Assembly: GCF_044222345.1 (NCBI RefSeq)
Contig: NZ_JBGANL010000005.1
Span: forward strand, 66,784-90,783
Direction of reading: 5' to 3'
Source of the DNA: Prosthecobacter sp.
Lineage (GTDB): Bacteria; Verrucomicrobiota; Verrucomicrobiia; Verrucomicrobiales; Verrucomicrobiaceae
Length of the DNA: 24,000 bases
Below the pieces are notes generated by a model. It saw nothing but the letters and a program-made list of their open reading frames with translations. It searched no databases and was not told the origin of the DNA. Numbering within the stretch: position 1 is the stretch's first letter; every line of letters begins with the position of its first letter. Shown here one piece after another: positions 5,770 through 17,848 of the stretch. Made by a program: the position numbers and the translations under genes.

Positions 5770-6027
5770 ATGAGCACCAAGCACATCATCGCCGCCGCCG
5801 CCTTCACCGGTCTCCTCTCCGGCGCCTACGCCGCCCAGACCACCAGCACCCAGAAGGCCGCCAGCCTCGGCGTCTCCATCGAAAAGATGGCTGACAAAGG
5901 CCAGCACGCCTGCAAGGGACACAATGCCTGCAAGGGACAGGGCGGCTGCAAGTCCGGCGACAACGGCTGCAAAGGCAAGAACTCCTGCAAAGGCAAAGGC
6001 GGCTGCAACACCATGCCGAAGAAGTAA
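5770..6027 (+). CDS. Sec-signal Cys-repeat precursor peptide (bufferin/HvfA-like RiPP metallophore precursor candidate)
   Basis: 86 aa. Signal peptide 'MSTKHIIAAAAFTGLLSGAYA|AQ' with an AxA-type site. The C-terminal core 'ACKGHNACKGQGGCKSGDNGCKGKNSCKGKGGCNT' has six Cys in two duplicated 3-Cys modules. It lies immediately upstream of DUF692/DUF2063/DoxX genes. An in-frame ATG at 5704 is an alternative start that would add 22 aa before the signal peptide. Confidence 0.7.
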   Translation: MSTKHIIAAAAFTGLLSGAYAAQTTSTQKAASLGVSIEKMADKGQHACKGHNACKGQGGCKSGDNGCKGKNSCKGKGGCNTMPKK

Positions 6028-6040
6028 GCCAAATCGATTT

Positions 6041-6084
6041 CCGCAGCCACACGACACCTCCCGCGTGTGGCTGCGGTTGTCTTT
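6041..6084 (+). terminator. intrinsic-terminator-like hairpin (candidate attenuator) between precursor gene and DUF692 gene
   Basis: 'ccgcagccacacg' (6041-6053) pairs perfectly with 'cgtgtggctgcgg' (6064-6076). That gives a 13-bp GC-rich stem and a 10-nt loop, followed by the T-rich 'ttgtcttt' (6077-6084). It starts 14 nt after the precursor stop codon. Confidence 0.5.
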
Positions 6085-6108
6085 AACCCAGGCCTTCCCA
6101 ACCCAGCA

Positions 6109-6951
6109 ATGCCCGCCAACCCTCACAACGGTCACACCGATCTCGGCATCGGTCTTGGCCTCCGAGTGCCGCACTACCGGCACATTCTGGAGAAAAAGCC
6201 CGTCTGTGACTGGTTTGAGATCATCTCCGAAAATTTCATGGTCGATGGCGGCCGACCGCTGGAGGTGCTGGACAGTATTCTGGAGCAGTATCGCGTCGTG
6301 CAGCACGGCGTCGCTATGTACTTTGGCAATGCCGATCCTCTGAACCGCGATCACCTCAAAAAACTCAAGCGTCTGGTGAAGCGCACCAACACGCCCTGGC
6401 TCTCCGATCACCTCTGCTGGGGCAGCGTGGGTGGCCGGTGCTCGCATGATCTCCTGCCCATGCCTTACACGACGAGCGTGGCCAGACACACGGCTGAGAA
6501 GATCAGGCAGGCGCGCGATTTTCTCGAAGTGCCCATCTGTGTCGAAAATGTGAGCAGCTATGCCGAATTCACCCAGAACGAGATGACCGAATGGGAGTTC
6601 CTCAACGAAGTCGTCGAGCAAGCCGATTGCGGCATCCTCCTGGATGTAAACAATATCTACGTTTCCTCTCAAAATCACGGCTTCGATCCCTTCGAGTATC
6701 TTCGTGCAGTGCCGCATCATCGTGTGGGCCAGATTCACATCGCGGGTCACACACGGTATGAAAACGTCATCCTTGACACGCACGATCATCCCGTGCCCGA
6801 TCCCGTGTGGGATCTCTACGCCGAGGCGATCAAACTTTCCGGCAGCACCGCCACGCTGCTCGAATGGGACGACAAAATCCCCAGCTTCGAAGACGTTCAC
6901 GCCGAAGCGCTCAAAGCCAGCCGCTATCTCCATGAGCACGCGCACGCCTAG
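6109..6951 (+). CDS. DUF692 family multinuclear non-heme iron enzyme (MbnB/BufB/HvfB-like)
   Basis: Family-typical motifs run along the whole length: 'LGIGLGLR', 'DWFEIISENFM', 'VQHGVAMYFG', 'WLSDHLCW', 'HDLLPMPYT', 'VENVSSY', 'GILLDVNNIYVSSQNHGFDP', 'GQIHIAGH', 'ILDTHDHPVPDPVW' and 'TLLEWDD'. I chose the start at ATG 6109, downstream of the hairpin. The track ORF begins at GTG 6067, inside the hairpin. Confidence 0.9.
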   Translation: MPANPHNGHTDLGIGLGLRVPHYRHILEKKPVCDWFEIISENFMVDGGRPLEVLDSILEQYRVVQHGVAMYFGNADPLNRDHLKKLKRLVKRTNTPWLSDHLCWGSVGGRCSHDLLPMPYTTSVARHTAEKIRQARDFLEVPICVENVSSYAEFTQNEMTEWEFLNEVVEQADCGILLDVNNIYVSSQNHGFDPFEYLRAVPHHRVGQIHIAGHTRYENVILDTHDHPVPDPVWDLYAEAIKLSGSTATLLEWDDKIPSFEDVHAEALKASRYLHEHAHA

Positions 6952-7804
6952 CCAGATCCGCACCAATGCAGACCTGCGCCACCTGCAGCGCACGATGGCT
7001 GCCGCACTCATGCAGCCGCTTTCGCGTCAGGATGGCATGAATGCCAGAACGCAGGTCGATTTCATCACGCCAAACGATCGCATGAGCGGTTTCGATCGGC
7101 TCGAAATCTACGCCCGCCAGTATTGGTTCCGTCTGCTCGACTGCCTCTACGATGATTATCCTGCACTGCGCGTTTTTCTGGGCGAGCGTCGCTTTCACCA
7201 GCTGTGCCGCGACTACCTCGCGCAGCATCCCAGCAATTCCTGGACTCTGCGAAATCTTGGATCCGCCCTCCCCTCTTTTATTACGGATCTCAAGGCGCGT
7301 GATATTACCCGAGTTGAATGGGCGCAGACGCTTGCCTTTGACGAGGTGTTGAAAAAGCCGCTGCGGATCGATGATCTGCTTGGCACTGACCCCTCCACGC
7401 TTCGTCTGGGAATTCAGCCCTGCGTCGTGCTTCTAGAGATCGACCATGCGGTCGATCACTTCATCACCGCGATGAACAAGGCCGACGCCGATGTACGTGG
7501 TTCAGCCAGCCAGGCCATGTCCGAGGCGCCCACCCGTGACAGCATTGCCAAAGCACCGAAATTGAAACGTGAGCGTGTGCATCTGGTTGTCCATCGCCAC
7601 GACAACATGCTGTACTTCAAGCGCCTCTCCCTGGAGTCTTTCGCCATGCTAGCCGCACTGCGGGATGGCCTCACGCTGGCAGATGCCGTCGAACTCGCAC
7701 TTGCCCAAGCTGCTCCGGACACTGACTGGCCAGCACAAATCCGCGAATGGTTTACCGAGTTCTCTCAGCTCGGGTGGTTCGTCAAATCTCCCCAAAAATC
7801 ATGA
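6932..7804 (+). CDS. DUF2063 family protein (MbnC/BufC/HvfC-like partner of DUF692)
   Basis: N-terminal 'LRHLQRTMAAALMQP...FDRLEIYARQYWFRLLDCLYDDYPALRVFLGERRFHQLCRDYLAQHPSNSWTLRNLG' fits DUF2063 as I remember the family. ATG 6932 overlaps the DUF692 gene by 20 nt. This is the conserved position after DUF692. Confidence 0.8.
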   Translation: MSTRTPSQIRTNADLRHLQRTMAAALMQPLSRQDGMNARTQVDFITPNDRMSGFDRLEIYARQYWFRLLDCLYDDYPALRVFLGERRFHQLCRDYLAQHPSNSWTLRNLGSALPSFITDLKARDITRVEWAQTLAFDEVLKKPLRIDDLLGTDPSTLRLGIQPCVVLLEIDHAVDHFITAMNKADADVRGSASQAMSEAPTRDSIAKAPKLKRERVHLVVHRHDNMLYFKRLSLESFAMLAALRDGLTLADAVELALAQAAPDTDWPAQIREWFTEFSQLGWFVKSPQKS

Positions 7805-8259
7805 AACCTTGGACCCTGGCCAACACTCTCCTTGATCGCACCGCAGGTTATCTGGCAGATCCTTTTCTGCTCGGCATCCGCCTCTACTGGGGCTGGCAGT
7901 TTTTCCAGACTGGCAAAGGCAAGCTCAGTGACATCAGCGTACCCACCGCCTTCTTCACGGAGCTCGGCATTCCCTTTCCACAGCTCAATGCCTGCATGGC
8001 TGGTTGCACCGAGTGCCTTGGTGGGCTGCTGCTTCTGGTTGGCCTCTTTTCCCGAGTCACCTGCGTGCCCCTCATCTTTACCATGCTCGTCGCCTACAGC
8101 ACGGCGCACCTCGATGTGGTGAAGACGATCTGGGCGGATGCCGACTCCTTCGTCAGCGCGCCGCCGTTTCTTTTCCTGTTCGCTGCCGTGACGGTCTTCA
8201 TCTTTGGCCCAGGCAAGTTCTCGGTCGATGAACTGCTGCGCAGGTGGAAGGCCAGATGA
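7801..8259 (+). CDS. DoxX family membrane protein
   Basis: 152 aa with four hydrophobic helices. 'LGIRLYWGWQFFQTGKGKL' and 'LGIPFPQLNACMAGCTECLGGLLLLVGLFSRV' are DoxX-like. The start ATG overlaps the DUF2063 stop (ATGA at 7801-7804). Confidence 0.8.
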   Translation: MKPWTLANTLLDRTAGYLADPFLLGIRLYWGWQFFQTGKGKLSDISVPTAFFTELGIPFPQLNACMAGCTECLGGLLLLVGLFSRVTCVPLIFTMLVAYSTAHLDVVKTIWADADSFVSAPPFLFLFAAVTVFIFGPGKFSVDELLRRWKAR

Positions 8260-8266
8260 ATGCATC

Positions 8267-8620
8267 TCAAGGCATTCCCGCCTCCTGCTTCAATGCTTCA
8301 CGGATATGCTGGAGTGCTTCGGGGGAAAGAGCGGAAAGGATGTCTGTGTTTTCTTCGTGGCAGGCTGTGCAACGCAGAATGACGCGGAGGTTCTCGAGCT
8401 GCCTCGGCAATGGGCGGCAGACATGGCAGAGCAACGAGTGCAGGTGAAATCGCAGGTTTTCAGTCAAGCTGAGCGGGCGGTCGAGACGCAGAGATGTGAG
8501 CACGGCGAACTGACGGCAGGAGAGGCCAAGTAGCTTCATCATAGGCCACATCATGGCTTGCATGATCCGGTAGATCAGGCCCGGCGCGGGTGGTGCGTGT
8601 GAGTGTGCGGAAGTTTTCAT
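8267..8620 (-). CDS. cytoplasmic zinc-binding (ZAS-type, zf-HC2) anti-sigma factor
   Basis: C35-x25-H61-x3-C65-x2-C68 ('HSLLCHVC') matches the ZAS ligand pattern. A second 'CTACH' cluster lies near the C-terminus, and there is no convincing TM helix. ATGA overlap with the upstream sigma gene (8617-8620). Internal Met starts (e.g. 8542) are possible. Confidence 0.65.
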   Translation of the reverse strand: MKTSAHSHAPPAPGLIYRIMQAMMWPMMKLLGLSCRQFAVLTSLRLDRPLSLTENLRFHLHSLLCHVCRPLPRQLENLRVILRCTACHEENTDILSALSPEALQHIREALKQEAGMP

Positions 8621-9174
8621 GGGGTGATGCCGTGATATTGCAGACAGGCGCGAAGTTGGTGTCTGGCACGGGTGAGGAGCACGGCAGCGCTGCCAGGGGT
8701 GACTCCGGCGGCGGCGGCGGCTTCACCGACGGGGAGATTGTCCACTTCTCGCAGGGTGAAAAGCAGACGCAGGCGCTCGGGCAGGCGCTCGATGCAATTA
8801 CGCACCCAGTCGAGGACTTCGGAGCGTTGCGCTGTCTCGCCGGGAGATTCATTGAGCAGTTCGACGCCGTAGTTGGGATCAATACGCCAGGAACCGCGCG
8901 AATCGAACAATGTATCAAGCGGGTCGGTTCCCCAGTCGTTCTTTTCGTCTCGCCCAACGGATTGCGCGGTAGGGGTGCGTCTGGCACTGCGGAAGTGGTC
9001 GAGGATTTTGAACTTCATGATGCCGGTGAGCCAGGTGGAAAGGGTGGAACGACCATCGAAGTCATCGCGCTTTCGCCATGCGATGATGAGAGTGTCCTGC
9101 ACGAGGTCCTCTGCGTGCTGGTGGTCCTGGAGCCGCTGATAGGCATGATGGTAGAGTCGTGGTGCTTCGCTCAT
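8617..9174 (-). CDS. ECF-family RNA polymerase sigma factor
   Basis: Sigma-70 region 2 is 'HAEDLVQDTLIIAWRKRDDFDGRSTLSTWLTGIMKFKILDHFR'. The region 4 HTH is 'LRLLFTLREVDNLPVGEAAAAAGVTPGSAAVLLTRARHQL'. I set the start at Met22 of the track ORF (MSEAPRLYHH). Starts at 9201 or 9237 are not excluded. Confidence 0.85.
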   Translation of the reverse strand: MSEAPRLYHHAYQRLQDHQHAEDLVQDTLIIAWRKRDDFDGRSTLSTWLTGIMKFKILDHFRSARRTPTAQSVGRDEKNDWGTDPLDTLFDSRGSWRIDPNYGVELLNESPGETAQRSEVLDWVRNCIERLPERLRLLFTLREVDNLPVGEAAAAAGVTPGSAAVLLTRARHQLRACLQYHGITP

Positions 9175-9475
9175 CAGGATGTCGGCGGTAATTAGACACA
9201 TGCGGTTGAACATGGCGAAACAAAACACGCCCGCCACTGCGATGACAGGCGTATCCCGGAATAAACAGAAGGTGAGTGCCGGGTCTGCGCGCTGTAGTTG
9301 TACGAATGGCAGGTGGACTTGCCGTTGGGGAGTGTAAGCGCGAGCAGCGCTGCGATACGGAGAAGGCGGGCCGGGATGTGGATGTGCTTCATGTCTGGGT
9401 GCTTGTCGTTTTTGTCACCGCTTCGACAAGTGCGTGATTTGGAGGGCAAGTGTTGGTCGTTCGAAGCCGCGGGGT

Positions 9476-9518
9476 GTTAACGAGTTTTTTTTTGAAGCGG
9501 ACGAAGAAACTCGTTAAC
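9476..9518. promoter_or_regulatory. perfect 12-bp inverted repeat (candidate operator) in divergent intergenic region
   Basis: 'gttaacgagttt' (9476-9487) and 'aaactcgttaac' (9507-9518) are exact reverse complements separated by 19 nt. The left arm runs into a T9 tract (9485-9493). No U-run follows on either strand, so it is not a canonical terminator. Confidence 0.5.
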
Positions 9519-9520
9519 AT
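9492..9520 (+). promoter_or_regulatory. candidate sigma70-type promoter for the 9550-12966 operon
   Basis: 'ttgaag' (9492-9497), a 17-nt spacer, then 'taacat' (9515-9520). Each hexamer matches 4/6 of TTGACA/TATAAT. A T-tract lies upstream, and it sits ~30 nt upstream of ATG 9550. The right palindrome arm covers the spacer and -10. Confidence 0.3.
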
Positions 9521-9549: not shown

Positions 9550-9687
9550 ATGAAATCATCACCTGCTTGCTCTAATGAAAAAAAATGCGGTCCATGCAGC
9601 CGTGGGCTGTGCCCCGGAACCATTATACTCGGCGTGGTCCTGCTTATGCAGGGCTGCATGGCGTTGTACCATTGGATGGTTGGCTGA
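9550..9687 (+). CDS. small (45 aa) Cys-rich single-pass membrane peptide, hypothetical
   Basis: My own translation: MKSSPACSNEKKCGPCSRGLCPGTIILGVVLLMQGCMALYHWMVG. It has an N-terminal C-x5-C-x2-C-x4-C cluster followed by one hydrophobic helix. It is below the 60-aa ORF-track cutoff. The first 11 codons are AT3-rich, atypical for this genome, so coding status is uncertain. Confidence 0.35.
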   Translation: MKSSPACSNEKKCGPCSRGLCPGTIILGVVLLMQGCMALYHWMVG

Positions 9688-9723
9688 GCATCACCTGCTG
9701 AAACTATATCCGAGCACCGCTTC

Positions 9724-9882
9724 ATGAAAGCCGCACTCTCCCTGTTTATCCGACGTCATTACGGATTCCTGCTCATTGTCGTTGGAGTCATCGCCTACGT
9801 CAGTGTTTCCGGCATGTTCGGTGCCTGCCCGATGTGTCGCGCCGTCACGAAGTCGGTGGGTTTGCCCTCGCTGACCAAATGA
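9724..9882 (+). CDS. small (52 aa) membrane protein with YgaP/DUF2892-like G-x-C-P motif
   Basis: My own translation: MKAALSLFIRRHYGFLLIVVGVIAYVSVSGMFGACPMCRAVTKSVGLPSLTK. The hydrophobic helix followed by 'FGACPMC...G' resembles the DUF2892 C-terminal motif. Codon usage is GC3-rich. Its TGA (9880-9882) overlaps the ATG (9879-9881) of the next gene. Confidence 0.5.
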   Translation: MKAALSLFIRRHYGFLLIVVGVIAYVSVSGMFGACPMCRAVTKSVGLPSLTK

Positions 9883-10451
9883 TGCTGAACATGATTGATG
9901 ATTCCGTAGCCACAGACAAGCCGCCATGCCTGTTTGAGGAAAACAACGCCATGCTGCTCTCGGGTGTTGCAGTGCTGGCCGGGCTGCGGCCGGAAGTGTA
10001 TGCATGCGTGGATTCACGCTGCCTCGGTGGCAGCATCGGCGGGCATGTGCGGCACTGTGTGGAGTTCTACCGCAGTTTTCTCACGGGACTAGACACGGGC
10101 TTTCTGGATTACGATGCACGGGCGCGTGATCCAAGGCTGGAAAATGACCCGAATTCGGCCTGCGAAGTGATGCGCCAGACGGCCAGGTGGCTGAGCGTGG
10201 CGGCTAGCCATGAGGACACGGATCGCAGCCTCAATATCGTGGAAAACCATGATGGAGGAGAGCCCGTTTGGTCGCCTTCAAGCGTGGGCCGTGAGCTGCG
10301 ATTCCTGTTGAGCCACACAGTGCATCACTACGCGCTCATCGCCATCCTGCTGCGGCTGCGAGGAATCAAGACGCCAGAAGGGTTTGGCATAGCTCCGTCC
10401 ACATTGCGCTATCGGAAGCGTCCAACCCCCTCTACACCATGTGCACGGTAA
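9879..10451 (+). CDS. DinB-fold (DinB_2-like) putative metalloenzyme
   Basis: 'GGSIGGHVRHCVEFYRSFL' and 'LLSHTVHHYALIAILLRLRG' look like the first and last His-bearing helices of the DinB four-helix bundle. I set the start at ATG 9879, coupled to the upstream stop. The track ORF starts at 9834. Confidence 0.6.
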   Translation: MMLNMIDDSVATDKPPCLFEENNAMLLSGVAVLAGLRPEVYACVDSRCLGGSIGGHVRHCVEFYRSFLTGLDTGFLDYDARARDPRLENDPNSACEVMRQTARWLSVAASHEDTDRSLNIVENHDGGEPVWSPSSVGRELRFLLSHTVHHYALIAILLRLRGIKTPEGFGIAPSTLRYRKRPTPSTPCAR

Positions 10452-11176
10452 GCTGGTCATACGGGGCCAGCGGGGGGCTGGCGCTATGCTTCAACCGCGA
10501 TGAGCAGCATGTGCGTGCCGCAGGATTGCCGGTGCAGATATGGGCGGGTGGTTTTCTCGCTCCGGTGGATGCCGAGGCAGGCGGGACGTGGCTGGCGGTG
10601 CGTCAGGATGGAATCTTGCTCGCCTTGTTGAACCATTATCCGCCAGGGTTCGCTCCATTTGCGAATGGTGTCAGCCGTGGCGCTTTGATTCCGGTGCTGG
10701 CGGCCCGGATTGAACGGCCCGGACTGCGTGCGCTGCGAGATTTGGTTTCAGCGCGCATGAATCCATTCCGCCTACTGCTGCTGGCGCCTGATGGCGAGCG
10801 CAGGGTGTTCACCTGGGATGGCAGCGCGTTCACCGGCCTGCGGGTCATTCGTGAATCGACGGGCATGCTCACCAGTTCATCTTGGAATACTGCGGCCGTG
10901 GTGGCGGCACGGCATGTGGCATTTCGTGGGTGGCGCAAAAGTCATCCGTCGCCAGCTTTGGCAGACCTGTGTGGGTTTCACTGTCAGGGGCAGCACCCGA
11001 GAGGCGGTGCCTGGGCCGTGTGCATGAGCCGGGAAGATGCGCGCAGCGTGAGCCTCAACACGCTGCATATTGCGGAGGGTCGTGCGGTGATGACGCACCA
11101 GATCCGCAAGCGGGGGGCGGACGGATTCGATGCCGACAGCCACACGATGCAAATACGCGTCTCCAACCGTAAATGA
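10439..11176 (+). CDS. NRDE family protein (TANGO2-like, N-terminal Cys)
   Basis: It begins 'MCTVSW' and carries the eponymous 'CFNRDE' motif at residues 17-22. Length of 245 aa is typical. It overlaps the DinB gene by 13 nt. Confidence 0.8.
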   Translation: MCTVSWSYGASGGLALCFNRDEQHVRAAGLPVQIWAGGFLAPVDAEAGGTWLAVRQDGILLALLNHYPPGFAPFANGVSRGALIPVLAARIERPGLRALRDLVSARMNPFRLLLLAPDGERRVFTWDGSAFTGLRVIRESTGMLTSSSWNTAAVVAARHVAFRGWRKSHPSPALADLCGFHCQGQHPRGGAWAVCMSREDARSVSLNTLHIAEGRAVMTHQIRKRGADGFDADSHTMQIRVSNRK

Positions 11177-12966
11177 ATATACCCCGGCCCTTCGTCAACA
11201 GCGCTGAACTACTGCCACAGGGGGCGCTGCGCCAGATTTATCGGCTTTTACTGCGCCCGCTGGTAGAACGGGCCTGCGGTTTTCATGCGCTCAATGCCAT
11301 CTATGCGCGCCTGCAAGGCCCGTACATGACGCCCCAGCGCTTTTGTGAGGAAGGTTTGCAGCATCTCGGGGTGGAGGTGGCGAGGCCCACGGATGATGAA
11401 CTTGGTCCGCTGCGCGACTGGAACGGGCCACTGGTGGTGATGGCGAACCACCCCTTTGGCGGCGCTGAGGCCCTGGCGATGATGCTGCTGCTTGAACGCA
11501 TCCGCCCAAGTGGCTGGCGCATGTTTGCCAACCGCGTGCTGGCTTCCACGCCGGAACTGGCGCCGCACCTTATTGCGGTGGATCCGTTTGCCCGGTTTCA
11601 GTCTGCCAACCGCCAGGGTATCAAGCAGGCGCAACGGTTTCTGGCAGATGGCGGCGTGCTGGGAGCATTCCCTGCCGGGCGCGTCTCTGGCTGGAGCGTG
11701 GCTTATGATTGTGTGCTCGACACACCGTGGAGCGATCATCCTGCGCGCCTCGCTGCCGCCACCGGTGCCGCCGTGGTGTTGCTGCAGGTGCCGGGCTGTA
11801 ACAACGGTCTGTTTTTGAAAGTGCCCATGTGCTGGCCGCGACTCCGTGCGCTCTTTCTCCCCCGCCAGATGTTACGATCCAACAAGCCCGCCATGCGCTT
11901 TCATATTGGCCCGGTGATGGACCCCGCGACGGCGGGCAGTCTCGTTCGTGCGGGAAATGCAGGAGCCAAGTTTCATGCACGCTGCCAGCTGCTTGCCGAG
12001 CTTCAAAACGAACCGCCGACGAGCAACGTGTCCGCAGTGCCGGACATCGCTCCGGCAGGTGATCCAATTGGGCTTCGAGAGGAGGTGGACGGGCTGAGCA
12101 GTGGTGCCGCACTCCTTTTTGAGCAGGGGCGTTTCACCGCGCTGCTGTTTCAAAAAGCCGAAGCCTCGAATCTGTTTCATGAGCTGTCACGGCTGCGGGA
12201 GATCACCTTCCGCGCATCCGGGCAGGGCGGTGGAGCAGCGGTGGACATCACCCCCGAGGACAACTACTACCACCAGCTCGTGCTGTGGGATCGCGAGAGG
12301 CAGCGTCTCGTCGGAGCCTATCGACTTGGTTTTACAGAAGAGGTGCTGCGGGAGCGTGGGCAGGAGGCGCTCTATTCGAGCCACGTCTTCCACATGCGTC
12401 CGGAGTTTTTCCAGCGCATCGGTCCGGGCATTGAGTTGACGCGTTCCTGCATACATCCCGACTACCAGCGTGATCCGCTGGCGCTGGCGCTGCTGTGGCG
12501 CGGATTGGGCAAGATCGTGGCCGCGCGTCCGCAAATACGCTGTCTGTTTGGCTCTGTCACCGTGCCCGCCACCTTGAGCGATGCTTCCCGAGCCATCCTC
12601 GTCGAACATTTGCGGCGGCATCATTCCGATGTGGCCGAGTTGCTGCCACTGGTGGTTCCAAAGCAGTCTTTTCAGCCCCCCGGCATTGCTCATCGGCTAA
12701 TTGCCGAGGCTCATCGGAACGACCCCATCGAGACGCTGCGTGATACAATTCGCTCTGCCGATGGCACTCCGCGCAGCATCCCGCCGCTCATCCGCCACTA
12801 CCTTTCCATGAACGCCAGGTTCCTCGCCTACCACGTTGAGCAAGACTTTGGCAACGCCCTATACTGTCTGTTGCGTGTTGACCTGTCGAAGGCTCCGCCC
12901 GCGCATCTGAACCGCTTTGTTGGCAGGGAAGCCGCTGCTGCACTGCTGAGAAAAAAAACACCATGA
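11173..12966 (+). CDS. fused lysophospholipid-type O-acyltransferase / GNAT N-acyltransferase (OlsF-like aminolipid synthase)
   Basis: The N-terminal half has 'VVMANHPFGGAEAL' (acyltransferase His motif) and 'GGVLGAFPAGRVS'. The C-terminal half has the OlsB/hemolysin-like GNAT pattern 'LREITFRASGQGGGAAVDITPEDNYYHQLVLWDRERQRLVGAYRL...ALYSSHVF...IELTRSCIHPDYQR...ALLWRGL'. ATGA overlap with the NRDE gene (11173-11176). Confidence 0.75.
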   Translation: MNIPRPFVNSAELLPQGALRQIYRLLLRPLVERACGFHALNAIYARLQGPYMTPQRFCEEGLQHLGVEVARPTDDELGPLRDWNGPLVVMANHPFGGAEALAMMLLLERIRPSGWRMFANRVLASTPELAPHLIAVDPFARFQSANRQGIKQAQRFLADGGVLGAFPAGRVSGWSVAYDCVLDTPWSDHPARLAAATGAAVVLLQVPGCNNGLFLKVPMCWPRLRALFLPRQMLRSNKPAMRFHIGPVMDPATAGSLVRAGNAGAKFHARCQLLAELQNEPPTSNVSAVPDIAPAGDPIGLREEVDGLSSGAALLFEQGRFTALLFQKAEASNLFHELSRLREITFRASGQGGGAAVDITPEDNYYHQLVLWDRERQRLVGAYRLGFTEEVLRERGQEALYSSHVFHMRPEFFQRIGPGIELTRSCIHPDYQRDPLALALLWRGLGKIVAARPQIRCLFGSVTVPATLSDASRAILVEHLRRHHSDVAELLPLVVPKQSFQPPGIAHRLIAEAHRNDPIETLRDTIRSADGTPRSIPPLIRHYLSMNARFLAYHVEQDFGNALYCLLRVDLSKAPPAHLNRFVGREAAAALLRKKTP

Positions 12967-13044
12967 ATCGGGAATAAACTCCCAAGACCCATACTCCTAC
13001 ACTCAACCTACCTGCATGGATGCGCTGATAAGACTCACAAAAGC

Positions 13045-13644
13045 ATGGAACTCACGTGTCACTTTGGCATTGAAATGCCTGCAACTCGCCCGATACCTCG
13101 ACGCGTGACTGACTCCGTGCCCAGCTTTGAGCAGATCGTGGACTCCCACTATCAGGGACTCTACCGCTTTGCCTTGAGCATGTGCCGACGTGAGGCCACC
13201 GCGCAGGATCTCGTGCAGCAGACCTTTCTGCAATGGGCAAAAAAAGGGCATACGCTGCGGGATGCTTCGAGGGTGAAGACCTGGTTGTTCACAACCATCT
13301 ACCGTGAGTGGCTTGGCATTGCCCGTCGCGAGAAAAAATACGAGGAGGTCGAATTTGAACCCGAGCAGCACGGTGCCATGCAGCACCATGATGATGGCGA
13401 AAACCCACGCGTAGACAGCGCCACGCTGCAAACGGCGCTCGAAGAACTGGAGCCAAACTACCGCGCACCGCTGGTGCTTTTTTACCTCAAGGAGCTATCC
13501 TACCGAGACATTGCCGAGACATTGGGTGTTCCCATCGGCACCGTCATGTCCCGCCTCTCCCGCGCCAAAGACAGCCTGCGCAGCATTCTCCGCCGCCTTG
13601 AAGAATCCGCCCCCTCCAACATCATCCCCTTATCCGCCTCGTGA
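13045..13644 (+). CDS. ECF-family RNA polymerase sigma factor (second copy)
   Basis: Region 2 is 'AQDLVQQTFLQWAKKGHTLRDASRVKTWLFTTIYREWLGIARR'. Region 4 is 'YRAPLVLFYLKELSYRDIAETLGVPIGTVMSRLSRAKDSLRSIL'. Alternative start at ATG 13075. Confidence 0.85.
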   Translation: MELTCHFGIEMPATRPIPRRVTDSVPSFEQIVDSHYQGLYRFALSMCRREATAQDLVQQTFLQWAKKGHTLRDASRVKTWLFTTIYREWLGIARREKKYEEVEFEPEQHGAMQHHDDGENPRVDSATLQTALEELEPNYRAPLVLFYLKELSYRDIAETLGVPIGTVMSRLSRAKDSLRSILRRLEESAPSNIIPLSAS

Positions 13645-14369
13645 ACCGCGAAGAAGCCAGACTCGAACTCGATGCCACGACGCTCCGCCCTCAGGACGCG
13701 TCGCCTGAGGCGCGTGCCATGGCCGGGAGCGATCCCGAGCTGGGTGCATGGCTGAAAAAACGCACCGAGTTTGATCAACAGGTCGCCGATGCCTTCGCTG
13801 CATCCTTGCCGGCTGGATTGCGTGAGAGCATTTTGCAAAATTCCAGGAAGCCCGTCAGGCGTCCCATCCGCTGGGTGCTGCCTGCATTGGCCGCTGCTGC
13901 CGCTGCCGTCGTGCTCAGTTGGACGATGTTCTGGCCCGTGAGCAATAGCATGCCCGGCTGGCAGGCTGAGTCGCTCGCCGCCGTGACGAAAGTCGAGTAC
14001 GGAATGCTCAAGGTGGATCACATGTCCCGAGATTTTGAAGCCATCAAAAAAATGCTCGTGACGGATCAATCTCCGACACCGCTGCGTCTGCCTGGCACGG
14101 TGGGGAGCATGCCCGTGCTGGCCTGCAAATGCATCAAAGTTGCTGGTCGCAAGGCATCCATCATTTGCTTTGAAATTGAGCCTGGCAAAGAGGCGCATCT
14201 GGTCGTGGTGGAAAACACAGGGCTCACCGGTTTGCCGCCTCAACTTCAGCCGCAGTTCAAAACGAGCAAAAACTGGAACATGGCCAGTTGGAGCGATGGC
14301 AGCCAAACCTTTCTGCTCGCGACGACGGCAGATGAAGCGGCGTTGAAAAAACTGTTTGGGCTGGCTTGA
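13641..14369 (+). CDS. putative single-pass membrane anti-sigma factor
   Basis: The GTG start overlaps the sigma stop (GTGA at 13641-13644). It has a ~75-aa cytoplasmic N-domain, one TM ('WVLPALAAAAAAVVLSWTMFWPV') and a ~145-aa periplasmic domain. The call rests on position and topology; there is no ZAS motif. Confidence 0.55.
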   Translation: MNREEARLELDATTLRPQDASPEARAMAGSDPELGAWLKKRTEFDQQVADAFAASLPAGLRESILQNSRKPVRRPIRWVLPALAAAAAAVVLSWTMFWPVSNSMPGWQAESLAAVTKVEYGMLKVDHMSRDFEAIKKMLVTDQSPTPLRLPGTVGSMPVLACKCIKVAGRKASIICFEIEPGKEAHLVVVENTGLTGLPPQLQPQFKTSKNWNMASWSDGSQTFLLATTADEAALKKLFGLA

Positions 14370-14371
14370 GG

Positions 14372-14776
14372 TTACGGAATCGCACTCACCTGCACCTTGG
14401 TCTTCCCGAGCACGGTATGGCAGTTCACGCACTGCTGGCGCAGCGAGGCAAAAGCAGCTGGGGAGCGCTTTGAGTCGTGTTTTTTGAGTGTGGTTTTGAG
14501 TTCGGCGAAGGGTCCGTTTTCCCACCCGGCAAGCAGGGGCTGCAGATCTACCATGGTTCCACCGGAAGACTTTTGCCGAGGTGCGCTGGTGATCGACTTG
14601 GACACACTCGAATGCATGCGTTCTGACATGGCCAGCGCGGCATCCCACTCGCCAGCCTGCTGCAACCTGCGCGTTTCCAGCATCTTGCGCTGGGCCGCTT
14701 TCATACGGTGGCCGTTCATCGTGCTGGCACAGGAGGCCAGCGCGATCATCATGGCGAGGACGAATAGACTTTTCAT
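14372..14776 (-). CDS. lipoprotein c-type cytochrome, class II-like (C-terminal CxxCH)
   Basis: I set the start at Met26 of the track ORF: 'MKSLFVLAMMIALASC' is a signal peptide with lipobox L-A-S-C. It has a single 'CVNCH' heme motif ~15 aa from the C-terminus and is ~134 aa. That is the layout of cytochrome c'/c556-type four-helix proteins. Confidence 0.55.
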   Translation of the reverse strand: MKSLFVLAMMIALASCASTMNGHRMKAAQRKMLETRRLQQAGEWDAALAMSERMHSSVSKSITSAPRQKSSGGTMVDLQPLLAGWENGPFAELKTTLKKHDSKRSPAAFASLRQQCVNCHTVLGKTKVQVSAIP

Positions 14777-14792
14777 GGGTTTGGTGAGTGAA

Positions 14793-15791
14793 TCACCGCC
14801 CTTCGAATCTGTCACGTCCTTTCGCCAGCGCTTCGATCTTGCGATCGGCAATGCTGCGTTTGAGCATCCAGAAGCCGCAGTCGGGATGGATAAACTTCAC
14901 CCGGCCTGAACCTAGCTTTTTCTCCGCTGCTTCGATGCGGCGGGCGATTTCATCGGCGGTTTCGACGTGGTTCACCTTGATGTCCACGACACCGAGGCCG
15001 ACACCGATTTTGGGATCAAGTTCCTTCAGCGCATCGAGGTCGGCGGCAGGACGATGGGCGAGTTCGAGCACGAGGTGGTCGGCACGCAAGGAGTTCAGGA
15101 AGGAGATGAGCGCGGCCCACTCGCCCTTTTGAATTGTCTGGCCGCCATAGTTGCCGAAGCAGAAGTGCACGGCTTTCGTGCCTTTCACCGCATCCAGCAC
15201 TCGATTGATGCCTGCGGCGGCGATGGGAGCATCCGCCGGGTTGCCGGGAATGTTTGCCTCATCGACTTGCACGCATTCACATTGCAAATCGGCGGCCTGT
15301 GCGGCCAGCGCATCGGCGATGGCCATGTTGAGCGCTTCAAAGTCGTGGTAGTGGGTATCCAGCAGGGTACGGGCCAGCATGTACGGACTGGTCAGCGTGA
15401 ATTTGAACGGGCCGCCGGCCACTTTGCCCGCGCGGGCGCAGTCCTCTGCCAGATTGAGGACCCCTTCGGTGATGGGGCCCCGCACCACGGCGGCTGGCTT
15501 GCTGCGGAAGGCCATCTCATGTTTGGCACGAAACGCGGCGGCATCGGCTCGCCCCACACAGCTGTCAATGCCGCCCAGCTTGTGGACGAAGTATTCGATC
15601 ATGCCGTTGGTGTCCGGATGATTCACATCGAAGCGATACAGTTCGCCATCCGTCGGTAGATCAATGCCGGCCTGGCGCTGGGTATCGAACACCACACGGG
15701 TGGCATCAATGACGGCGGCCTCGCTGGGCAGCGCGCTGAGCCATTCGGGAACAGGGTAGGAGCCGACGGTGGTGGTCTGGATGGTGGCCAT
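14793..15791 (-). CDS. cobalamin-independent methionine synthase (MetE C-terminal domain)-like methyltransferase
   Basis: 'TTVGSYPVPEWL', 'PTDGELYR', 'HFCFGNYGG' and 'IHPDCGFWMLKR' (His/Cys zinc ligands) fit the short MetE-like family at 332 aa. Confidence 0.8.
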   Translation of the reverse strand: MATIQTTTVGSYPVPEWLSALPSEAAVIDATRVVFDTQRQAGIDLPTDGELYRFDVNHPDTNGMIEYFVHKLGGIDSCVGRADAAAFRAKHEMAFRSKPAAVVRGPITEGVLNLAEDCARAGKVAGGPFKFTLTSPYMLARTLLDTHYHDFEALNMAIADALAAQAADLQCECVQVDEANIPGNPADAPIAAAGINRVLDAVKGTKAVHFCFGNYGGQTIQKGEWAALISFLNSLRADHLVLELAHRPAADLDALKELDPKIGVGLGVVDIKVNHVETADEIARRIEAAEKKLGSGRVKFIHPDCGFWMLKRSIADRKIEALAKGRDRFEGR

Positions 15792-17275: not shown

Positions 17276-17848
17276 TCAATCATGTCCAGCGGCTTGCAAC
17301 TGCTTGACACCATCGGCCAGATTGAGAAAACCCGACAGGGCGGTAAAAGTGGCGGCAAAGAGCGTGGGCCAGATGAGCCACTCAGGCTTGAGATCGAGCA
17401 GGATCCACAGGATGGCCGCCATCTGGGCAAAAGTGGCTGTTTTGCCGGTCCAGTGGGTGTGGATTTGGAATTTGCCGGCAAAGTGGTCGATCAGGAAGGC
17501 CCCGCCAATGGAGAGCAGGTCGCGGCCGATGACCAAAATCGGGAACCACAGGGGAAAATGCTGCCGCCAGGAGGTAAAACTGAGCAGGATGATGGCGGCG
17601 AGCATGAGCAGCTTGTCCGCAAGCGGGTCCATGATGGCCCCGAACCGGGTGCGCTGATTGAACCGGCGGGCGATCCAGCCGTCAATCGCGTCACTGATCG
17701 AGGCAATGCCGAAGACCGCAGCAGCCCATTGGCGCAGGGCTTCATTGGGGTGCTCCCCACGGGCGCTTTCGCCATAATAGATCACCAGCCCGATGAAGAC
17801 GGGAATCAGCAGGATGCGGAAGATGGTGATCTGATTGGCGAGGTTCAC
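17276..17848 (-). CDS. pgsA: CDP-diacylglycerol--glycerol-3-phosphate 3-phosphatidyltransferase
   Basis: 'DAIDGWIARRFNQRTRFGAIMDPLADK' matches the CDP-alcohol phosphatidyltransferase signature DGx2ARx8Gx3Dx3D. It is a 190-aa multi-TM protein with a PgsA-like N-terminus 'NQITIFRILLIPVF'. Confidence 0.85.
   Translation of the reverse strand: MNLANQITIFRILLIPVFIGLVIYYGESARGEHPNEALRQWAAAVFGIASISDAIDGWIARRFNQRTRFGAIMDPLADKLLMLAAIILLSFTSWRQHFPLWFPILVIGRDLLSIGGAFLIDHFAGKFQIHTHWTGKTATFAQMAAILWILLDLKPEWLIWPTLFAATFTALSGFLNLADGVKQLQAAGHD

Follow-up and report, generated by a model that had tools for sequence, protein, structure and literature searches.

A stretch of 24,000 nucleotides (nt) from Prosthecobacter sp. 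(contig NZ_JBGANL010000005.1), referred to here as the window, carries a compact + strand operon whose core recurred in several bacterial lineages. This conserved core is composed of a DinB-fold protein, an NRDE/TANGO2-like protein and an aminolipid acyltransferase, which is either of the fused OlsF type or split into OlsB- and OlsA-type enzymes; a fusion of an alpha/beta-hydrolase with a DedA-type (VTT) membrane domain usually completes the set. The window locus is best read as the Verrucomicrobiales version of a widespread and so far undescribed module. Of particular value is the tie between a protein of the TANGO2 family and a defined class of lipid-making enzymes, with conserved partners and a putative dedicated regulator.

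Aminolipids are synthesized by three pathways (OlsBA, OlsF and OlsHI), to which a handful of tailoring enzymes can be added. The initial annotation of the window knew of no described pathway with this composition and the literature agreed: full-text searches on TANGO2/NRDE, DinB, aminolipid, DedA and gene neighbourhood, whose coverage left most subscription journals outside, returned no description of the cluster and linked neither NRDE/TANGO2 nor DinB to aminolipid genes. A 2026 review of aminolipids (PMC12971839) mentioned neither DinB nor TANGO2, and listed the Verrucomicrobiales OlsF homologues as lacking functional evidence.

Composition of the operon

The five + strand open reading frames (ORFs) of the initial annotation were found again in the window sequence, with all junctions as it had described them. 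The first gene, pepA (9550-9687), encodes 45 amino acids (aa) counted from its ATG, the mechanical ORF beginning at TTG 9520, and is followed after a 36-nt gap by pepB (9724-9882), which encodes a membrane peptide of 52 aa with a conserved GMFGACPxCR motif. An ATGA at 9879-9882 joins pepB to the DinB-fold gene (9879-10451, 190 aa, Pfam DinB_2 and DinB), which in turn overlaps the NRDE/TANGO2-family gene (10439-11176, 245 aa, Pfam TANGO2) by 13 nt (10439-10451). A second ATGA (11173-11176) leads into the gene of the OlsF-like bifunctional acyltransferase (11173-12966, 597 aa, NCBIfam OlsF and GlsB, Pfam Acetyltransf_5). The exact 597-aa protein was present on ten public metagenome contigs with an identical gene order, and the best named relatives were metagenome-assembled genomes (MAGs) of Prosthecobacter, in Verrucomicrobiota. 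Gene callers had recorded four of the five genes on public contigs and skipped pepA. Scans for sigma-70 promoters and intrinsic terminators yielded nothing above shuffled expectation, and no terminator was detected between the five genes or ahead of the downstream gene for an extracytoplasmic function (ECF) sigma factor.

The bases shared by the DinB and NRDE genes, ccATGTGCACGGTAA (10439-10451), are read as P-C-A-R-stop in the DinB frame and as M-C-T-V in the NRDE frame. A 13-nt overlap of the form ATGTGCACnnTRA was seen in 36 independent loci and overlaps of 1, 22 or 31 nt in 15 further loci, so that the arrangement is far beyond chance. An overlap conserved so widely argues for coupled translation and, probably, for a complex of the two proteins at a fixed ratio. 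The subfamily of the DinB protein also displayed a conserved 'CA(R/Q)' tail at its C-terminus (window 10437-10451 and 36 other loci). This tail is nothing but the NRDE start M-C-T (ATG-TGC-AC) in the -1 frame and probably has no function as a motif of DinB.

The three domain assignments of the initial annotation were all sustained: that of the NRDE/TANGO2-like protein with 39 bits against a Pfam TANGO2 cutoff of 22.6, that of the DinB-fold protein barely (DinB_2 25.0 against 24.8, DinB 24.4 against 23, Pfam thresholds), and that of the OlsF-like protein along residues 53-583, corresponding to positions 50-569 of the 570 in the NCBIfam OlsF model. The score of the latter (270.8 bits) lies far under the OlsF equivalog cutoff of 620, and by this NCBI criterion the protein is therefore no orthologue of OlsF.

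In the NRDE/TANGO2-like protein, Cys2 directly follows the initiator Met, so that no propeptide would have to be removed, and the motif N19-R20-D21-E22 is present and aligns to the NRDE of the TANGO2 structure 8sv7. An alignment of 31 sequences displayed invariant R20-D21-E22 and R158, while Cys2, N19 and an SSS run (146-148) occurred in at least 90 % of them. The structural model (predicted local distance difference test, pLDDT, 94.8) retrieved human TANGO2 at the top of the Foldseek matches (8sv7 and 9bwa, E = 2e-11 to 1.5e-10, TM 0.69-0.70), followed by isopenicillin-N acyltransferase, NAAA, bile-salt hydrolase, penicillin V acylase and acid ceramidase; the matches to these enzymes of the N-terminal nucleophile class with a catalytic cysteine (Cys-Ntn), namely 2x1d, 6dy2, 6ufy, 2z71 and 5u7z, all had a Foldseek probability of 1.00. 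Judged by conservation, N150 and R158 would be equivalent to the oxyanion Asn and to Lys166 of TANGO2. The window protein has in common with human TANGO2 (PF05742) the Cys2, the NRDE motif and a fold of the alpha-beta-beta-alpha type, but it is bacterial, only 16-18 % identical and translationally coupled to a DinB-fold protein. With the Cys-Ntn acyl-amide enzymes it shares the fold and a predicted N-terminal Cys nucleophile, although identity drops to 8-13 %. What these enzymes cleave or transfer is an N-acyl chain, attached by the type of bond that OlsB- and OlsF-type enzymes make. The family is no rarity, since the window protein matched approximately 1,500 clusters at 50 % identity in public data (E <= 1e-10). 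NRDE genes split between frames were encountered in long-read MAG contigs (L014 7001-7760, L013 7001-7733 and L043 7468-8260), and reflect either pseudogenisation or frameshifts of assembly.

The model of the DinB-fold protein (pLDDT 92.7) is a four-helix bundle, as in the DinB/YfiT superfamily, to which bacillithiol and mycothiol S-transferases belong. Foldseek retrieved the DinB/YfiT structures 2f22, 2qe9 and 1rxq (E = 6e-4 to 3e-3) and a weak structural match to the mycothiol S-transferase MST (8f5v, E = 0.16), while a profile search of PDB sequences found no relative. In subfamily alignments H59, H146 and H150 were invariant, and H56 and H149 were also conserved. The invariant histidines are located on helices 53-73 and 136-160 of the model, which would correspond to the helices bearing the metal-binding triad in YfiT-type proteins. 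The window protein belongs to a distinct subfamily, set apart by a beta-hairpin insertion and by additional DYDxRxR and RE motifs that are invariant.

The OlsF-like protein is composed of an N-terminal O-acyltransferase domain (GlsA-like, 39-248) and a C-terminal OlsB/GlsB-type N-acyltransferase domain (GlsB-like, 325-562, GlsB 122 bits; NCBIfam); in Pfam, Acetyltransf_5 was matched while Acyltransf_2 remained below threshold (22.9 against 27). Such an order within one polypeptide, as well as the motifs NHPFGG..(D/E) and FPAGRVS, is shared with OlsF of Serratia proteamaculans and Flavobacterium johnsoniae. The signatures NHPFGGAEA and FPAGRVS were conserved across the subfamily, the first one displaying Glu in the Verrucomicrobiales clade and Asp in the other aligned sequences. 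In contrast to OlsF, the window gene belongs to an operon with DinB and NRDE genes, a setting not reported for OlsF in the literature searched; neither were DinB, NRDE or hydrolase-DedA partners reported there for canonical olsBA loci. Outside Verrucomicrobiales, most versions of the module carry separate OlsB-like and OlsA-like genes, like Sinorhizobium meliloti, but these score around 120 bits against cutoffs of 300-350, and the window itself has the fused OlsF type.

The product of pepA is a single-pass membrane peptide with a CGPCSRGLCPG motif near its N-terminus; it had no match in Pfam or NCBIfam and was 63-67 % identical in L007 and L008. One Prosthecobacter MAG, Bin_70R, contained two full paralogous pepA-pepB-DinB-NRDE-OlsF operons on different contigs (L007 6138-9510 and L008 6130-9483). 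The motifs CGPCSRGLCPG and GMFGACPxCR were intact in both, and nonsynonymous substitution rates (dN) of 0.22-0.35 against synonymous rates (dS) of 0.99-1.25, a dN/dS of approximately 0.2-0.3 for pepA and pepB, indicate purifying selection. We regard both peptides as genuine genes because they are conserved in two loci, with their motifs intact and a dN of about a quarter of dS. The label 'DUF2892-like', which had been attached to pepB, turned out to be weak (YgaP-like_TM, 15.1 bits against a Pfam cutoff of 25.3, E = 0.026). pepB was not found in L009, L010 or any locus outside Verrucomicrobiales, and both peptides together were missing from L009, L010 and all other lineages, being confined to the closest relatives. 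That they might be remnants of the missing hydrolase-DedA gene was considered and rejected, as no similarity was found.

Conservation of the module across lineages

Synteny was explored from three seeds, namely the NRDE protein (genome scan), the DinB subfamily (metagenome scan) and the OlsF-like protein. The NRDE scan, seeded with an alignment of 12 sequences and using narrow patterns, was limited to 10 loci. Four Verrucomicrobiota loci retained the series DinB-NRDE-OlsF, with identities of 49-66 %. A locus from Planctomycetota (L015) displayed instead an OlsB-like gene, an OlsA-like gene, DinB, NRDE and an alpha/beta-hydrolase-VTT (DedA) fusion of 850-890 aa; the same gene set formed a tightly packed operon in L017, whose NRDE cluster includes a member labelled Gemmatimonadales.

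The DinB seed gave 80 metagenome loci. NRDE was present in 47 of the 57 loci having at least 400 nt of downstream sequence, and among the 17 loci with full flanks NRDE was found in 15, the hydrolase-DedA fusion in 16 and acyltransferases in 13. From the OlsF-like seed, homologues at 39-47 % identity adjoined DinB in all three cases and NRDE in two of them, while one homologue at 38 % occurred without both. In an all-against-all clustering of the neighbourhood ORFs, conserved antisense shadow ORFs in G+C-rich genes predominated, and phmmer searches with the genes of the Opitutaceae locus L101 took its place.

At least five gene orders were observed (with B, A and Abh standing for the OlsB-like, OlsA-like and hydrolase-DedA genes): B-A-DinB-NRDE-Abh, DinB-NRDE-Abh-B-A, NRDE-Abh-A-DinB-B, DinB-NRDE-OlsF and DinB-Abh-NRDE. 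In the third of these, the two halves of a split OlsF-type enzyme have DinB between them. The acyltransferases accompanying DinB and NRDE are of two types, OlsF and OlsB/OlsA, which are only about 25 % identical. Altogether, the module was encountered in Verrucomicrobiota, Planctomycetota, Acidobacteriota and Bdellovibrionota, besides the cluster with the Gemmatimonadales-labelled member.

Synteny, whose loss had been set beforehand as the refuting outcome, was thus checked, and the linkage of DinB, NRDE and acyltransferase held across phyla. The coupling of the genes had been taken as a sign of a functional unit; this gains weight from their co-location despite changes of order and despite fused or split enzymes. 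Because gene content survives rearrangement, fusion or fission and an exchange between two acyltransferase types, we consider the set a functional module. The five-gene operon as such did not prove to be the conserved unit, since the two peptides are restricted to the closest relatives and the usual hydrolase-DedA member is missing here. No homologue of this fusion (approximately 850 aa) was detected anywhere in the 24-kb window.

Two further genes recurred beside the module, one for a DoxX-like membrane protein (12 loci) and one for a YHS-domain (seleno)protein (10 loci; NF041384, 172 bits). Both precede DinB in L101 (7104-7987) and L055, and they recur also in L030, L037, L019 and other loci. 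Other neighbours were observed at individual loci. An alkaline/neutral ceramidase-family gene (PF04734) is located directly 3' of the OlsF-like gene in L104 (7875-9203), and DUF547 genes flank the module in L105 (4596-5459) and L106 (7966-8781); additional accessory functions, in amide-lipid or redox chemistry, may be encoded by them. A role as an anti-phage defence system was rejected, none of the five window proteins having a PADLOC match.

Putative control by ECF sigma factors

Comparison of upstream regions of the module uncovered a -35-like box of the ECF type, GGAATAAAC, which has just two matches in the window (0.13 expected; none of 100 shuffles reached two). The first occurrence (9258-9266, + strand) is located 292 nt upstream of pepA and is followed by a -10-like element, TCTGC, at 9284-9288. 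The second (12971-12979, + strand) lies 5 nt past the stop codon of the OlsF-like gene and 74 nt upstream of an ECF sigma factor gene (13045-13644, + strand, 199 aa; Pfam Sigma70_r2 and r4_2, NCBIfam sigma70-ECF 90.7 against 42.9 bits). This gene overlaps by 4 nt a gene for a DUF3379-like membrane anti-sigma factor (13641-14369, + strand, 242 aa, weak Pfam DUF3379 match). The sigma/anti-sigma pair is on the operon strand and starts 78 nt past the operon.

Across 732 kb of related loci the box had 21 matches on the + strand and nine on the - strand. Fifteen of the 21 were located upstream of a run of module genes at a distance of at most 300 nt from the start codon of its first gene, and 13 at a distance of at most 130 nt; this first gene was ECF, YHS, OlsB, DinB or pepA, and the distance was 31-128 nt in 12 loci other than the window. 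In most cases GGAATAA was followed after 16 nt by TCTGA, TCATA, CATAT, GATAT or GATTA, a layout resembling that of RpoE-type promoters (GGAACTT-N16-TCTGA). The YHS gene in L037 had its own GGAATAAGC box 57 nt upstream. In L007 (4204-4729), about 1.9 kb away from the operon, an unrelated ORF of 158 aa has a GGAATAAAC box 49 nt upstream; it may be a further member of the regulon, or the match may be due to chance.

The sigma factor and its anti-sigma factor were 48.5 % and 29 % identical (the latter over the full length) to the pair heading the module in L101, which reads ECF, anti-sigma, DoxX, YHS, DinB, NRDE, Abh-VTT, OlsB and OlsA; a close homologue of the window sigma factor also heads L055. 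Upstream of the ECF genes of both loci, which are orthologous to the window sigma gene, the box was located 31-34 nt from the start codon. In our reading, GGAATAAAC marks a putative promoter by which this ECF family would regulate itself, the module being its regulon, and the downstream sigma factor is likely to be the cognate regulator of the operon. The suggestion of a stress-triggered system gains support from this conserved box and from the conserved sigma/anti-sigma partner. The operon does lie between two ECF loci, but the downstream pair (13045-14369) is to be counted as part of the unit and not as a mere neighbour.

The other ECF locus is divergent from the operon and encodes a second sigma factor (8617-9237, - strand, recognized by Pfam) and a soluble anti-sigma factor of the HxxxCxxC zinc type (8267-8620, - strand, 117 aa; NCBIfam anti-sigma 41.3 bits against a cutoff of 50). 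Homologues of this sigma factor, together with weak homologues of the anti-sigma factor, were present near DinB modules in L097 and L100, the anti-sigma factor alone in L086, and a homologue of the pair about 4 kb from the operon in L007. The pair (8267-9237) is a possible additional regulator of the operon, with a weaker link to it. Just upstream of it an operon of the bufferin type was observed, which belongs to the ribosomally synthesized and post-translationally modified peptides (5770-8259, + strand). Its precursor of 85 aa has a signal peptide and six Cys repeats of the CKG type, with a weak BufA2 match (35.6 against 60 bits), and the operon also encodes MbnB/DUF692 (E = 9e-106), DUF2063/HvfC and DoxX proteins. 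As this operon ends beside the divergent pair, the pair may regulate it and not the lipid operon.

Several other features of the window were recorded. Approximately 30 nt upstream from pepA, at 9474-9519, there is a near-perfect 18-bp palindrome, GTTAACGAGTTT...AAACTCGTTAAC, which might act as a hairpin in the leader or as an operator bound by a protein. As RNA it would form a hairpin of -21.2 kcal/mol (z = -2.95) with no T-run after it; it matched no Rfam family and was not conserved in L007 or L008, and alignment of the regions upstream of pepA from the window, L007 and L008 revealed no conserved operator. A 159-aa ORF (14372-14851, - strand), convergent with the anti-sigma gene, displayed a CVNCH motif (CxxCH, haem-c type) and no Pfam match. 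Further downstream are two membrane-lipid genes, one of the TMEM164 family (PF14808; 20562-21251, - strand) and one for a CDP-alcohol phosphatidyltransferase (about 17276-17848, - strand), both identified by Pfam on the matching contig L001. They are on the strand opposite to the operon, and other loci revealed no link between them and the module.

Proposed function and alternative explanations

On balance, and with slightly better than even confidence, we favour an ECF-controlled module which would make an amide-linked acyloxyacyl amino-acid lipid and then remodel or turn it over by means of the DinB-NRDE pair. To judge from the position and conservation of the motif, envelope or redox stress would cause the membrane anti-sigma factor (13641-14369) to let go of the ECF sigma factor (13045-13644), and the freed sigma factor would fire the GGAATAAAC promoters upstream of pepA and of its own gene. 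By homology, the C-terminal domain of the OlsF-like protein would N-acylate an amino acid with a 3-hydroxy fatty acid, and its N-terminal domain would esterify a second fatty acid onto the hydroxyl. Cys2 of the NRDE protein, whose fold is modelled, may then cleave or transfer the N-acyl chain of the aminolipid or of its lyso form. The DinB protein would be a metal-dependent partner of NRDE which acts on the head group or binds it. More speculatively, pepA and pepB may supply a membrane-anchored thiol or metal function, as they are of the CxxC type and occupy the position of the DoxX-like and YHS genes of other loci.

A comparable logic is known from MprF with the AcvB/VirJ hydrolase, where aminoacyl-phosphatidylglycerol is synthesized, flipped and turned over. 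The module would resemble that system in a stress-induced amino-acid lipid for which a synthase, a flippase-like domain and a hydrolase are encoded together; it differs by unrelated protein families and by a lipid which would be amide-linked and without glycerol.

A number of observations weigh against this interpretation. The lipid chemistry of the module is deduced from homology and gene context, and the OlsF-like protein, far under the equivalog cutoff, may therefore use a substrate other than ornithine and give a product other than a membrane lipid. The reaction of the DinB protein is barely constrained and constitutes the weakest step of the scheme. For human TANGO2, acyltransferase activity has been reported as excluded (PMC11867700). 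The first box of the window is an outlier among the near matches, the other 13 of which, the second box included, are at 31-128 nt; it has a 19-nt spacer and a less canonical -10 element, and the -10 element of the second box is poor. The downstream ECF pair is missing from the Verrucomicrobiales relatives L007-L010. As for gene content, the closest NRDE genes outside Verrucomicrobiota, those from Vicinamibacterales, stand alone or with DinB only, acyltransferases were not found within 7 kb in four of the 17 loci with full flanks, and several loci had DinB, the hydrolase-DedA fusion and acyltransferases without NRDE.

The Vicinamibacterales pairs and the four loci devoid of acyltransferases are what would be expected if DinB and NRDE formed a thiol or electrophile detoxification pair, comparable to mycothiol S-transferase with the Mca amidase, while the acyltransferase independently stiffened or recharged the membrane and shared nothing but the ECF regulon. 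The DinB fold does include thiol S-transferases (with weak matches to MST 8f5v and YfiT 1rxq), the accessories have a redox-like appearance (DoxX-like protein, YHS (seleno)protein and CxxC peptides), and ECF control suits a general stress regulon. We consider this explanation unlikely, though the strongest of the alternatives. The acyltransferases remained adjacent through at least five gene orders and in the form of two non-orthologous enzyme types, and co-regulation alone is hard to accept given that DinB even separates the two halves of a split OlsF-type enzyme. Moreover, fatty N-acyl amides, and not thiol conjugates, are the substrates of the proteins structurally closest to NRDE, and no genes for the biosynthesis of low-molecular-weight thiols were seen in the neighbourhoods examined.

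Those same structural relatives are acyl-amide hydrolases, and would equally suit a signal or surfactant with its own turnover. Here a diffusible N-acyl amino acid would be the product of the acyltransferase and NRDE would be the acylase degrading it, in the manner of the Ntn acylases quenching acylhomoserine lactones. The N-acyltransferase domain belongs to Pfam Acetyltransf_5, a family which also contains N-acyl amino acid synthases, and the ceramidase-family gene adjoining the OlsF-like gene in L104 would fit as well. This proposal is nonetheless improbable. An O-acyltransferase domain or gene goes along with the N-acyltransferase in most loci with flanks, which points to a membrane lipid with two tails. 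A membrane protein with a DedA domain, a kind of protein associated with lipid translocation, is the usual partner, and the neighbourhoods had no recurrent genes for receptors or export.

Quite improbable in our estimation is a non-enzymatic NRDE protein, acting as an acyl-CoA or haem carrier or as a chaperone that delivers an acyl donor or cofactor to the acyltransferase or to DinB. Human TANGO2 was described in 2025 to bind acyl-CoA through its NRDE motif, in the same work that excluded acyltransferase activity (PMC11867700), and a haem-trafficking role had been proposed for TANGO2 and a bacterial homologue, according to the accounts of that proposal in PMC11867700 and PMC13044924. However, the residues invariant in the window family (R20, D21 and R158), together with Cys2 and N19 in at least 90 % of sequences, amount to a catalytic-type Ntn set, with roles as assigned in PMC13044924. 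In the same crystallographic study haem binding by TANGO2 was found to be non-specific (PMC13044924), and no genes of haem or cytochrome maturation recurred with the module.

A chance adjacency or an artefact of overlapping ORFs is scarcely credible: G+C-rich DNA does yield many spurious long ORFs and gene finders did skip pepA, but each of the five products shows conservation of its protein sequence in related loci, domain matches are real, predicted folds are of high confidence and the linkage was found from three independent seeds (NRDE, DinB and OlsF-like).

The lipid-remodelling module favoured here bears on TANGO2 itself, whose loss leads to severe metabolic disease in humans. The function of this protein is contested between a haem carrier, an acyl-CoA binder and a hydrolase without identified substrate (PMC11867700, PMC13044924); the 2026 crystallographic paper proposed a Cys-Ntn hydrolase of fatty-acid derivatives, substrate unknown (PMC13044924). 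Since the bacterial relative is locked to enzymes predicted to make N-acyl amino-acid lipids, the range of candidate substrates is narrowed. It is possible, and proposed here only tentatively, that amide-linked fatty acyl amino-acid lipids, or else lyso or acyl-thioester precursors of these, serve as the native substrates of NRDE/TANGO2 proteins, and that the bacterial DinB and NRDE form a hitherto unknown two-protein lipid-editing enzyme under ECF stress control.

The module would add to aminolipid metabolism a dedicated ECF sigma factor and a set of partners, conserved over several phyla, which the literature searched did not connect with these lipids: a DinB-fold protein, a TANGO2-like Cys-Ntn protein and, in its usual form, a hydrolase-DedA fusion. 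If the tentative proposal holds true, bacterial aminolipid metabolism would have a fourth branch, which would be regulated and equipped with a DedA-type transporter of its own. The operon would then also provide a simple bacterial system for solving the disputed function of human TANGO2, as a bacterial relative permits direct tests in Escherichia coli.

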